This document shows positions 1 through 1,183 of a stretch of DNA of 1,183 nt, one piece after another (position 1 is the stretch's first letter; the number at the start of each line of letters is the position of its first letter). The stretch is from a phage, in sequence record OR846234.1; one strand, written 5' to 3'. The position numbers were made by a program, and so were the translations under genes. The notes beneath the pieces are model-generated. The model had not been told where the DNA came from. It ran no database searches and saw only the letters and a program-made list of their open reading frames with translations.

Positions 1-852
1 GCCGCGGCTGTTACCGCATGGGCGTCAACGTGGCGCATTCCGCAATTTAAAACGGTTGGCCTGCCGACAATGGGGGCTTACCGTGAACTACGCAAATTGC
101 CGCGCGGCGTCAGCATTGCTGATGAGTTTGACGAGCGCGTCGAGGCTGCACGCGCCGCCGCAGACAGTGGTGATTTTGCGTTGTATATCAGCGCGCAGGG
201 TGGGGCAAATGTCCCGCGCGATCGTCAGACTGTCAGGGTCGCCCGTAGCCCGTCGGATGACGTTAACGAGTACGAGGAAGAAGTCGAGAGAGTGGTCGGC
301 ATTTACGCGCCGCATCTCGGCGCGCGTCATATTCATATCACCAGAACGACGGACTGGCGCATTGTGCCGAAAGTTCCGGTCGTTGAGCCTTTGACTTTAA
401 AAAGCGGCATCGCCGCGCCTCGGAGTCCTGTCAATAACTGTGGAAAGCTCACCGGTGGTGATACTTCGTTACCGGCTCCCACACCTTCTGAGCACGCCGC
501 AGCAGTGCTTAATCTGGTTGATGAGGGTGTCATCGAATGGAGTGACCCGGAGGTCGTGAAGGCGCTCAGGGGCGCATTAAAACACAACCTGAGAACACCA
601 AATCGTCAGCAAAGAAACGGAAGCCCGTTAAAACCATATGAAATGGCACCATCGGCCAGACTGACCAGGTCGGAACGAATGCAAATTACCCGTATCCGTG
701 TTGACCTTGCTCAAAAGGGTATCAGGCCGCAGCGATGGGAGCTCGAAGTGTTGGCACGAGGCGCTACTGTTAGTTATGAGGGACAAAATTTTGCATTCAC
801 GGATAGCCATGACTGGAGTGGTTTTGCTGAACACTTTGATCTTTTTGAGTAA
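1..852 (+). CDS. hypothetical protein, probably 5'-truncated by the window edge (first in-window ATG at 70; stop TAA 850-852)
   Basis: Frame 1 is open from nt 1 to the TAA at 850-852. The supplied ORF track calls 70..852 (260 aa). Codons upstream of ATG70 (GCC GCG GCT GTT ACC GCA TGG GCG ...) look coding, with enterobacterial-type preferred codons (CTG, CCG, GCG, CGC), and there is no purine-rich Shine-Dalgarno in the 15 nt before ATG70, so the real start is likely upstream. All other tracked ORFs in 56-834 overlap this one out of frame or on the opposite strand. I do not recognise the product family from the translation. Confidence 0.75.
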   Translation, partial: AAAVTAWASTWRIPQFKTVGLPTMGAYRELRKLPRGVSIADEFDERVEAARAAADSGDFALYISAQGGANVPRDRQTVRVARSPSDDVNEYEEEVERVVGIYAPHLGARHIHITRTTDWRIVPKVPVVEPLTLKSGIAAPRSPVNNCGKLTGGDTSLPAPTPSEHAAAVLNLVDEGVIEWSDPEVVKALRGALKHNLRTPNRQQRNGSPLKPYEMAPSARLTRSERMQITRIRVDLAQKGIRPQRWELEVLARGATVSYEGQNFAFTDSHDWSGFAEHFDLFE

Positions 853-855
853 TTA

Positions 856-903
856 CCATAAAATGCTCAGGCTACCGCTTGGGATATCCCATGGAATGCT
901 CAG
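856..903. repeat. two 15-bp direct repeats (CCATAAAATGCTCAG 856-870; CCATGGAATGCTCAG 889-903; 13/15 identical, 33-bp register) flanking a perfect 10-bp palindrome GGGATATCCC (881-890)
   Basis: Read directly from the sequence. The first repeat starts 4 nt after the CDS stop codon. The palindrome lies between the two copies and also contains the arm of the long-range inverted repeat (872-883). Confidence 0.6.
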
Positions 904-936
904 TGTATACGCTTTATGCATAGGGTATAAAGGCTG

Positions 937-952
937 CAATTGGCAACAATTG
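937..952. promoter_or_regulatory. paired palindromic hexamers CAATTG (937-942 and 947-952) at 10-bp spacing; candidate operator or regulator-binding site upstream of the small ORF
   Basis: Read directly from the sequence: gCAATTGgcaaCAATTGtgc, lying 10-25 bp upstream of the GGAG at 962-965. Nearby are further small palindromes (GTATAC 905-910, ATGCAT 916-921) and a 6-bp stem CTTTAT/ATAAAG (912-917 / 927-932). Confidence 0.25.
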
Positions 953-973
953 TGCTGACATGGAGATAAACTC

Positions 974-1069
974 ATGTTGAAACTAGTGAGAGTACGTCAG
1001 TACAACCGCTATCGTTTCGGACGTTGGGAGACGGTGCGTAAACACCGCCGTTCTTACCCAACACGATGA
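974..1069 (+). CDS. candidate small ORF encoding a 31-aa arginine-rich basic peptide (MLKLVRVRQYNRYRFGRWETVRKHRRSYPTR)
   Basis: ATG 974-976 to TGA 1067-1069. GGAG at 962-965 sits 8 nt upstream of the ATG, a near-ideal Shine-Dalgarno spacing. The peptide has 9 Arg, 2 Lys and 1 His against 1 acidic residue. Codon usage is mixed (CTA, AGA, GGA, CGA are rare codons). It is too short to appear in the supplied ORF track. No homology could be checked. Confidence 0.3.
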   Translation: MLKLVRVRQYNRYRFGRWETVRKHRRSYPTR

Positions 1070-1070
1070 G

Positions 1071-1139
1071 ATGATATGCGGCCTAAGCGGTAGTGTCTTC
1101 TATATTCTTTTTCTCTTCATACATTTTATTAAAATGTGA
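1071..1139 (+). CDS. candidate 22-aa hydrophobic small ORF (MICGLSGSVFYILFLFIHFIKM), very tentative
   Basis: ATG 1071-1073 begins one nucleotide after the stop of the 974-1069 ORF; the stop is TGA 1137-1139. There is no separate spaced Shine-Dalgarno, so translation would have to be coupled. The hydrophobicity may simply reflect the T-rich sequence (TTC, TTT, CTT, ATT codons). Confidence 0.12.
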   Translation: MICGLSGSVFYILFLFIHFIKM

Positions 1140-1183
1140 AATATCTCCCATAAGTCTAAATATCTCTTTAAATTGTGTGATGT
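1094..1183. promoter_or_regulatory. AT-rich tract (about 26% GC) with direct repeat AAATATCTC (1139-1147 and 1158-1166); candidate promoter/operator region or the start of low-GC acquired DNA
   Basis: Hand-counted GC is 24 of 93 for 1091-1183, against the high-50s % in the CDS. A -10-like hexamer TAAAAT sits at 1130-1135 but has no good -35 partner. No ORF with a credible start runs to the window edge. Confidence 0.35.

Follow-up and report, generated by a model that had tools for sequence, protein, structure and literature searches.

Plasmid R1's hok/Sok system is an established example of a small-protein mRNA that is closed, stable and poorly translated. The same kind of arrangement is found in aapA1/IsoA1 of Helicobacter pylori, where the 30-aa peptide AapA1 is encoded by a 250-nt mRNA whose 5'-3' pairing sequesters the Shine-Dalgarno (SD) sequence; this mRNA has a half-life above 3 h and is activated by the loss of about 25 nt from its 3' end (PMC5416894). 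A different group of known systems is that of the RloC nucleases, which are defined by ATP-binding cassette (ABC) motifs, a coiled-coil insert bearing a CxxC zinc hook, and an Arg-X3-Glu-X36-52-His triad, with Ser often preceding the His (Davidov and Kaufmann, PMC2610378). The HEPN-ABC family 'PrrC/RloC/APECO1_4465' also occurs in prophages (Anantharaman et al., PMC3710099), and how a RloC that is not linked to restriction-modification (R-M) genes stays silent has been a question since the protein was described in 2008 (PMC2610378). We analysed a 1183-nt stretch of phage DNA (sequence record OR846234.1; hereafter the window), which belongs to the gpA-gpQ defence hotspot of P2-like phages (PMC9122126) and contains an inverted repeat between the 3' end of gpA and the 3' end of an ATPase gene. 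By comparison of homologous loci, we show that this repeat is a selected RNA helix, P1, which closes a small-protein mRNA, and that the unit is co-inherited with a predicted RNase gene, namely a RloC-type anticodon nuclease, in any orientation, or, in one subfamily, a NYN RNase.

An earlier note on this DNA, made from the letters of the window, had reported the inverted repeat and its pairing. We recovered it as CTACCGCTTGGG (872-883) and CCTAAGCGGTAG (1082-1093), 12 nt long and 92% complementary with a spacing of 198 nt; its 11 Watson-Crick pairs and one G.U pair were as described, the G.U pair being on the + strand. The helix grows to 13 bp (871-883/1082-1094) with a second G.U pair. The caution that such a match might arise by chance was justified as far as the repeat alone is concerned. 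In dinucleotide shuffles, 1.66 such repeats (12 nt, at most 1 mismatch) are expected per 1183-nt window, and when 853-1183 was shuffled the expectation was 0.14, with 10% of the shuffles holding at least one. By itself, the repeat is within chance expectation; it becomes strongly supported once its context is counted, because it is the closing stem of a fold.

When the region 853-1110 was folded, the + strand reached -96.3 kcal/mol as compared to -67.2 ± 4.6 kcal/mol in shuffles (z = -6.3, 0/200 as good), and the repeat closed the whole + strand minimum free energy (MFE) structure. The fold of the minus strand gave z = -2.0. The two arms of P1, GCTACCGCTTGGG on the 5' side (871..883, + strand) and CCTAAGCGGTAGT on the 3' side (1082..1094, + strand), were each identified by the repeat search, the MFE structure, a strict stem search and covariation. 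The whole module, a fold-back mRNA of about 224 nt (871..1094, + strand), extends from the predicted transcript start to the end of P1 and was also hit by a covariance model (CM).

The closure of the RNA is a general feature of its relatives. In 18 representative homologues the fold had z values from -2.4 to -8.4, and in each of 38 distinct homologues the MFE structure paired a segment about 100 nt 5' of the ATG with a segment just past the stop codon. A strict search for contiguous stems found a 5'/3' stem of 9-18 bp in 41/41 non-redundant modules, which came from Enterobacterales, Vibrionales, Pseudomonas and high-GC metagenomes. The arms of these 41 modules fall into at least 8 sequence families. 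The window type has GCTACCGCTTGGG on the left and CCTAAGCGGTAGT on the right; further families pair TGCAGCTACCACC with GGTGGTAGCTGCA, GCAGCTACCCCC with GGGGGTGGCTGC, TGGATTGTCGCTCT with GGAGCGACAATCCA, TGTCGTCACCT with AGGTGACGATA, and GGTGGCGCTCGTCGC with GCGACGAGCGCCACC (left and right arm, respectively). The mean energy of the 5'/3' duplex was -31.3 kcal/mol for cognate arms versus -21.8 kcal/mol for non-cognate ones.

Covariation was analysed on two alignments. On a MAFFT alignment made from sequence alone, onto which the MFE structure of the window was projected, P1 was the best-supported helix: 84.2% of it was paired and 10/14 pairs were changed on both sides (for example AU:19/GC:9/CG:2, CG:15/UA:14 and CG:16/UA:10). 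Sliding the partner by 1-3 columns halved both pairing and covariation. RNAalifold, run on the plain MAFFT alignment, recovered a hairpin of the leader (H1, see below) as the sole helix, because the arms and the second hairpin, H2, are misaligned in divergent lineages. The covariance model, R1 (245 positions, 29 pairs), matched 863-1103 of the window over the full model length with 190.8 bits; it found full-length modules in exactly the peptide-bearing loci, including 9 loci outside model building, and in 0/54 module-less loci. On the CM alignment, 89.8% of cells pair and 26/29 pairs are changed on both sides overall, while P1 is 91% paired with 10/11 pairs covarying.

The segment enclosed by P1 contains a small protein gene of 31 codons (974..1069, + strand; MLKLVRVRQYNRYRFGRWETVRKHRRSYPTR), which is not annotated in RefSeq and was identified by tblastn, by its codon pattern and by a match to the family phrog_21154. 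The arginine-rich open reading frame (ORF) preceded by an SD sequence, which had been noticed before, is real, and it is conserved among homologues. The SD sequence GGAG (962..965, + strand), read from the sequence, stands 8 nt before the ATG, and GGAG (or GAGG/AGGA) was found 7-9 nt 5' of the start codon in 42/42 homologues. All of the tblastn homologues (42/42) were intact ORFs of 31-34 codons, the NYN-linked forms having 37. In pairwise comparisons 56% of the differences fell at codon position 3, and the ratio of synonymous to non-synonymous changes was 5027:4246 in frame, versus 940:8583 and 426:8782 in the other two frames. Judged by this pattern, the ORF at 974-1069 is protein-coding and under purifying selection, and the comparison of homologues shows both the RNA helices and the amino-acid sequence to be selected.

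The peptide is strongly basic, with an isoelectric point (pI) of 11.9, a grand average of hydropathy (GRAVY) of -1.49 and 11 K+R versus 1 D+E in 31 aa; homologous peptides have a net charge of +6 or more. Its invariant pattern, xVxVxxYxR[FY]RxGxxExVxxHxRxxP, is spread over the whole length with no concentration of conservation at the C-terminus. The match to phrog_21154 (PHROGs v4; E 1.6e-9, residues 3-30 on profile positions 19-46 of 47) is one of likeness in sequence to a family of unknown function, for which neither an RNA structure nor a linkage is stated; since the profile is 47 aa long, some of its members were probably called from an upstream start. Searches of Pfam, NCBIfam and PADLOC with the peptide returned no family. 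Gene callers nearly always miss this ORF. In the DNA and protein-database scans, two natural peptide variants joined head to tail were used as query, and the exhaustive search of 1.84 billion representative proteins yielded six proteins, all of them small; the motif occurred in no larger protein. The sole match in a word-indexed database of 5.8 billion proteins (P0093, 102 aa, from an ENA metagenome) was an over-extended ORF whose last 34 residues are a Pseudomonas-type peptide, which indicates that automatic annotation mishandles the small gene. The AlphaFold2 model of the single peptide was uninformative (predicted local distance difference test score, pLDDT, 63.5).

Upstream of the module, a consensus scan predicted a sigma-70 promoter (836..864, + strand), with the -35 box TTGATC at 836-841, a 17-nt spacer and the -10 box TAAAAT at 859-864. 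The -10 box stops 6 nt short of the 5' arm, and the predicted transcript start (about 870-872) coincides with the first P1 nucleotides. This spacing is maintained among homologues: a -10-like hexamer ends 4-8 nt (mode 6) 5' of the first paired base of P1 in 35/41 modules, with a sharp positional peak on the sense strand at -115 from the ATG.

Just 3' of the 5' arm, an anti-SD segment, TATCCCATG (885..893, + strand), pairs in the MFE structure with CATGGAGAT (958-966). According to the MFE structure and the partition function, the SD sequence of the window is paired with a probability of 0.75, its partners being 888-890, and a CUCC/UCUCC-type motif is found at the same place in Pseudomonas, Vibrio and NYN-linked homologues. 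The anti-SD helix appears less certain than P1, because its pairing partner varies between lineages. The cluster of palindromes previously noticed in the leader corresponds to the two hairpins H1 and H2. H1 (911..934, + strand; RNAalifold and CM alignment) is formed by GCTTTATGC, the loop ATAGG and GTATAAAGGC, with G932 bulged; 8/9 of its pairs were compensatory in RNAalifold on the plain MAFFT alignment, and on the CM alignment it was 97.5% paired with 9/9 pairs covarying. The window's own MFE structure has an alternative pairing at H1. H2 (937..952, + strand; E. coli variants and CM alignment) consists of CAATTG, a GCAA loop and CAATTG. Its pair 938-951 is A-T, T-A or C-G among 5 E. coli variants, and on the CM alignment the hairpin was 79.5% paired with 5/6 pairs covarying.

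The length of the module varies from 209 to 266 nt across homologues with constant geometry: the distance from the 5' arm to the ATG is 95-120 nt and that from the stop codon to the end of the 3' arm is 15-34 nt. The stop codon of the small ORF lies 12 nt 5' of the 3' arm in the window and 8-20 nt in all lineages. Three readings of the bracketed segment had been offered in the earlier note. The one that stood is a structured RNA with 5'/3' fold-back as in toxin mRNAs, since the arms covary, the -10 box keeps its distance from the 5' arm, and the helix encloses an SD-sequestering leader and a small ORF; a retron with a1/a2 repeats and a miniature inverted-repeat transposable element (MITE) or pair of recombination sites did not stand, as discussed below. 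What had been missed is that the RNA is the mRNA of a real protein, that the block is cargo of the ATPase and not gpA backbone, and that the ATPase stop codon falls within the right arm.

The distribution of the module was then compared with that of its neighbours. The gpA part of the window has matches in about 1680 E. coli genomes, of which 94 contain 853-1093, in one copy per genome; among the matches listed, an 'AAA family ATPase' adjoins the module in every case. In the alignment of related genomes, homology with P2-like gpA genes carrying other cargo ended at 743-825, inside gpA, and not at 872. For these reasons (presence in 94 of about 1680 gpA genomes, always beside the ATPase, and the stop of homology inside gpA), the module is cargo and not part of the P2 backbone. 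The last 10-35 codons of gpA, within which the -35 box lies, diverge with the cargo, and the gpA 3' end of locus L002 differs; the left recombination boundary of the hotspot seems to lie inside gpA, as far as the alignments indicate.

With tblastn, a peptide homologue was found beside the ATPase in 16/16 close loci and in 26/80 distant ones. The distant loci include an Enterobacter plasmid and DNA of Xenorhabdus, Serratia, Morganella, Pectobacterium, Leclercia, Vibrio, Photobacterium, Aliivibrio, Pseudoalteromonas, Neptuniibacter, Endozoicomonas, Celerinatantimonas, Halopseudomonas and many Pseudomonas. A scan of viral and metagenome contigs with the peptide only gave 59 loci: the neighbour is the ATPase in 49 and a NYN gene in 7, and 3 have too little flank to tell; that is, 56/56 informative loci found through the peptide have a RloC-like ATPase or NYN gene within about 300 nt. 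The three non-P2 E. coli islands with a more distant ATPase all (3/3) hold an unannotated module. The divergence of the module followed that of the ATPase (Pearson r = 0.886; Mantel 0/2000). The two genes are convergent (8-38 nt from stop to stop), tandem, with the module 214-285 nt downstream (Pseudomonas), or divergent (Halopseudomonas). The pair is present on chromosomes of Pseudomonas and Vibrio and on a plasmid, as well as in the P2 hotspot and in three further E. coli islands.

The NYN-linked subfamily comprises 7 high-GC loci with a 37-aa peptide, 6 in tandem and 1 convergent. These modules have the same architecture, with a perfect 15-bp P1 of unrelated sequence (z = -5.7 in locus L153). 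The neighbour in this locus (L153, 3051-5307; also in L149, L151, L152, L154, L155 and L157) is a NYN-domain protein of 238 aa whose C-terminal tail is Arg-rich.

The ATPase whose 3' end lies in the window (1083..1183, - strand; stop codon 1083-1085; 735 aa, RefSeq coding sequence L001 7083-9290) matches PADLOC PDC-S06 with E 1.6e-249 and Pfam AAA_13 with E 2.2e-110. Among 25 aligned homologues, whose identity goes down to 32%, the Walker A motif GQNGxGKST and the motifs LSEGEK, IVIDDPISSLS and LTH are invariant, as are the zinc-hook motif CPFC (C254-P-F-C257) and the triad R642-NIL-E646-x39-S685-H686. Residues 275-465 gave SMC/JetC/Rad50-type matches and are a candidate coiled coil. By its ABC motifs, CxxC hook and Arg/Glu/His triad the protein is assigned to the RloC family. 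It shares with RloC and PrrC the ABC motifs, the CxxC hook, the Arg-x3-Glu-x39-Ser-His arrangement and, as for APECO1_4465, a prophage location (PMC2610378, PMC3710099); APEC O1 is itself among the genomes carrying the module, as are E. coli ATCC 11775, PMV-1 and O157:H7 F8492. A distant relative (P0084) bears the JGI label 'wobble nucleotide-excising tRNase', and tRNase activity is a prediction for the ATPase of the window. A PDB sequence search with the ATPase gave no meaningful relative; a single-protein scan of species-representative genomes gave no match, and an alignment-based scan succeeded. HepS (Nature 2026, PMC13043305) was considered as a match and rejected, since it is a different, stand-alone HEPN protein.

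Some relatives of the ATPase, like PrrC, sit in type I R-M loci. The neighbours of the module-less relatives are HsdM/HsdS plus Abi_2, an FRG-domain protein, another HEPN protein, or NERD, and the ATPase family therefore has a partner position whose occupant is exchangeable. In a module-less Pseudomonas clade (L026 5262-6575, L028 5256-6554, L048 5275-6576), a conserved FRG-domain protein of about 435 aa is encoded directly downstream on the same strand; ATPase and FRG protein may be another uncharacterised two-gene arrangement.

Taking the evidence as a whole, we consider it probable that the inverted repeat forms the helix by which a small-protein mRNA of about 224 nt, self-contained and highly structured, is closed, and very likely that this fold-back mRNA is functionally linked to the nuclease. 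From the module's own predicted promoter, transcription would begin at the opening nucleotides of the 5' arm, and the unit would present, in this order, the anti-SD segment, H1, H2, the GGAG SD sequence, the 31-codon ORF and the 3' arm. By analogy with hok and AapA1, end pairing and SD sequestration would keep the full-length mRNA long-lived and poorly translated, and expression of the small protein might be gated by unfolding or processing of the RNA. The module would take the partner position that EcoprrI (type I R-M) holds for PrrC, and that other proteins hold in related nucleases, and it may control whether the adjacent RNase stays latent or becomes active. We favour such a regulator of latency on two grounds, the analogy with EcoprrI-PrrC and the place of the module in the partner position. 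The peptide or the RNA could silence the nuclease until infection; alternatively, the activated nuclease could cleave the lock and so release translation of the peptide. That the module is a silencing, antitoxin-like or sensing partner we propose tentatively, at somewhat less than an even chance, and that the peptide itself is a poised second effector seems rather unlikely. With similar reserve to the first of these, the system may be placed in a two-component abortive-infection/toxin-antitoxin class not recognised before, in which a locked basic-microprotein mRNA would be the obligate partner of RloC-like or NYN RNases and the RNA, the peptide or both would set latency. RloC and PDC-S06 are treated as single-gene systems; here a conserved small-gene mRNA stands in the place of EcoprrI beside a predicted nuclease, which suggests that a 'single-gene' defence candidate is really a two-part system.

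The resemblance to hok and AapA1 concerns the mRNA and not its product. As in those systems, the module is predicted to be a separate transcript of about 225-250 nt which encodes a peptide of about 30 aa, has a base-paired 5' end and sequesters its SD sequence, and like these type I toxin mRNAs it is found in mobile elements and prophages. Unlike them, it encodes a strongly basic, hydrophilic peptide with no membrane helix, has no mok-like leader ORF and no conserved antisense-RNA promoter that we could find, and occurs in tight and specific linkage with a large RNase gene. Of the features of type I toxin mRNAs, a small ORF on its own predicted transcript and 5'-3' closure with SD pairing were found, and a hydrophobic peptide was not.

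Several observations weigh against the explanation that we favour. If an antitoxin needs continuous synthesis, encoding it in an mRNA whose translation is repressed is an odd design, and the peptide, basic and soluble-looking, is unlike nearly all type I toxins. The minus strand of many homologues also folds well; since the strand asymmetry, clear in E. coli, is not universal, the strand assignment rests on the promoter, the SD sequence and the ORF. On the CM alignment the covariation score was 0.483 versus 0.225 in shuffles (0/500) and about 0.1 with slid partners, but the structure was used in fitting this alignment and its sequences are related by descent, so that shuffle statistics are not probabilities and the result for P1 on the sequence-only alignment is the more conservative one. 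The pairing probability of the SD sequence varies across homologues from 0.38 to 1.0 (mostly at least 0.6), and its partner is, depending on the lineage, the CUCC-type segment after the 5' arm or the start-codon region. No intrinsic terminator was found past the 3' arm, with 0 terminator-like sites in 780-1183; promoter, 3' end and 'locked' state are all predictions. Reading P1 itself as an intrinsic terminator was rejected, as 780-1183 holds 0 hairpin-plus-U-tract sites and P1 encloses about 200 nt. Of the 80 distant RloC-like ATPases, 54 have no module, and the nuclease therefore does not need it in general. Finally, the module-bearing ATPases do not form one clean clade in a rough neighbour-joining tree, whose resolution is too poor to tell a single from a repeated gain of the module.

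Among the other explanations, a type I-like toxin module fares best, although we regard it as unlikely. It holds that the basic peptide stands ready as a killer or as a second effector, that the fold-back mRNA keeps it off, and that the adjacent RNase either unlocks this mRNA by cleavage on infection or degrades it in the manner of a type V antitoxin. An RNase and a specific structured RNA encoded alongside it, each of the two being separately controlled, are paired in type V (GhoS/GhoT) and type III (ToxIN) systems. This comparison would apply if the module RNA were a substrate or inhibitor of the partner RNase; unlike ToxI, the module has no tandem-repeat RNA, the region containing just a lineage-specific 15-nt repeat in two copies, and, as a further difference, the RNase partners here are large sensor-effector proteins. 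The mRNA architecture shared with hok and AapA1 speaks for a toxin, as do the module's own predicted promoter and its occurrence in any orientation. Both partner families are RNases though structurally unrelated, and an RNA serving as substrate of both is easier to envisage than a peptide binding both. The peptide, however, has no hydrophobic segment (see the pI and GRAVY above), and RloC is already a sufficient toxin (PMC2610378). A positionally conserved antisense promoter was not found either, at most 4/32 representatives sharing an antisense -10 position, with the proviso that a consensus scan could miss a weak or trans-encoded small RNA; where the two genes are convergent, the mRNA of the ATPase could run into the module in antisense. 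Moreover, the module is intact where the ATPase is broken: in E. coli ATCC 11775 (L004, 4208-8217) the ATPase is split by ISEc12 (IS21-family), and in L091 it is shortened by truncation, which argues that the RNase is not an essential antitoxin.

An arrest or leader peptide is improbable. Such a peptide would act in the ribosome exit tunnel, and the ribosome at the stop codon would melt P1, switching the stability or conformation of the RNA with no function in trans. The short distance between stop codon and 3' arm in all lineages means that a terminating ribosome would indeed reach P1. The conserved aromatic and basic residues and the proline near the C-terminus may also resemble those of known arrest peptides. 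However, conservation runs along the whole peptide instead of being concentrated C-terminally, and in tandem and divergent arrangements there is nothing downstream to be regulated in cis.

Still less probable is a module with no tie to the nuclease, either an independent element of the selfish or addiction kind or a small, unrelated gene, that hitch-hikes in defence islands. Defence islands are mosaic (the L153 island also carries a RES-Xre toxin-antitoxin pair and a resolvase), and the many ATPase relatives lacking the module fit such a view; the adjacency to a RloC-like ATPase or NYN gene in every informative locus found through the peptide, the co-divergence with the ATPase and the persistence of the association in three orientations and at least four genomic contexts do not.

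A DNA-level element (a MITE, or recombination or binding sites bounding a cassette) or a chance match is very improbable. The lone 12-nt repeat is within chance expectation, as said above, the locus is a recombination hotspot (PMC9122126), and blastn delimits a homology block at 873-1092 in many E. coli variants. This block is, however, the conserved module between faster-evolving flanks. The arms change by lineage and stay complementary, which indicates that pairing is selected and a protein-binding site is not; the + strand tolerates G.U pairs; the element occupies one place per genome in 94 genomes; and the cargo has its left boundary inside gpA (743-825) and its right boundary beyond the ATPase. 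A retron-like RNA with a1/a2 repeats around msr-msd is the least credible reading, since a repeat bracketing about 200 structured nt, the presence of retrons among the known cargo of the P2 hotspot (PMC9122126) and a weak Rfam match to RT-6 (910-981, + strand; 19.1 bits, E 0.23) are opposed by the lack of a reverse transcriptase among the annotated genes of L001-L005 and L158-L160, by an RT-6 score far under the gathering score of 46.7 with no RT-family match in 8 distant modules, and by a protein under purifying selection encoded in the region. The RT-6 match, which covers H1, H2, the SD sequence and the start codon, was rejected and is most likely due to chance; the Rfam search of the window gave, besides it, a spurious long non-coding RNA match, and no Rfam model exists for the module.

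A fold-back mRNA with a small ORF and a RloC nuclease are both of known kinds. The RNA/peptide family, its non-hydrophobic product and the obligate pairing with RloC-like or NYN RNases appear undescribed in the searchable literature: neither a small ORF nor an RNA partner is mentioned in PMC2610378, PMC3710099, the P2 hotspot papers or other openly searchable literature on PDC-S06/RloC. A defined set of RloC-type genes has a constant unannotated companion, a small protein gene in a covarying, end-closed mRNA. If the two-component reading is true, PDC-S06 and prophage RloC become two-gene systems, and the silence of R-M-unlinked RloC gains a concrete answer. An ATPase cloned or tested alone may mislead on toxicity or defence. 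The module would extend the hok/AapA1-type mRNA lock to a non-hydrophobic peptide and to a partnership with a protein RNase and, if the coupling is true, would offer a tractable system for the control of an immune nuclease by RNA folding. The covariance model and the peptide profile are ready for use in annotation.

As regards the rest of the window, its order is the 3' end of gpA (to 852), about 230 nt of intergenic DNA, and the 3' end of the minus-strand ATPase gene. The gpA part (1..852, + strand) belongs to a P2-like replication endonuclease, lies outside the module and contributes the -35 box in its last codons; 'replication endonuclease' is the annotation of the match to 1..852 in 1683 E. 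coli records, and the ORF at 70-852 shares its frame with position 1. The drop in GC content after 1093 that had been remarked on was confirmed (from about 0.47 to about 0.30) and is due to the low-GC ATPase gene. The ATPase stop codon and last three codons (T-T-A) fall inside the 3' arm of P1. In P2-type loci (L002, L003, L006, L010, L014), the ATPase has an acidic tail followed by an invariant '-T-A-stop' complementary to the 3' arm (1083-1094); ATPase codons overlap the 3' arm in these loci only, where all variants end in this way, and the bases 1083-1094 are therefore doubly constrained, by the protein and by the RNA helix.

Two further features of the earlier note turned out not to be conserved. 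The 'hydrophobic ORF' at 1071-1139 (+ strand; MICGLSGSVFYILFLFIHFIKM) is open just in sequence of the window type and in its 93% relative; every other variant, whether from E. coli or from Enterobacter, reads MRPKR-stop at this site. This ORF is the antisense of the C-terminal ATPase codons and no gene. The 15-nt direct repeat (856-870, CCATAAAATGCTCAG, and 889-903, CCATGGAATGCTCAG) is absent from other variants, its copies overlap the -10 box and the anti-SD region, and on this comparison it is probably without function.

Two modules lie next to known RNA families. In Pectobacterium (L051, 5605-5809, + strand), about 170 nt from the module, Rfam matches above threshold were obtained for isrK (65.8 bits) and C4 antisense RNA (58.5 bits), together with c4-a1b1 targets below threshold (38.8 bits versus a gathering score of 46.7), which points to a P1/P7-type prophage immunity region as the predicted neighbour. 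In Pseudoalteromonas sp. TB64 (L049, 5511-5675, + strand), the module is adjoined by a TwoAYGGAY RNA match (45.5 bits, gathering score 43).

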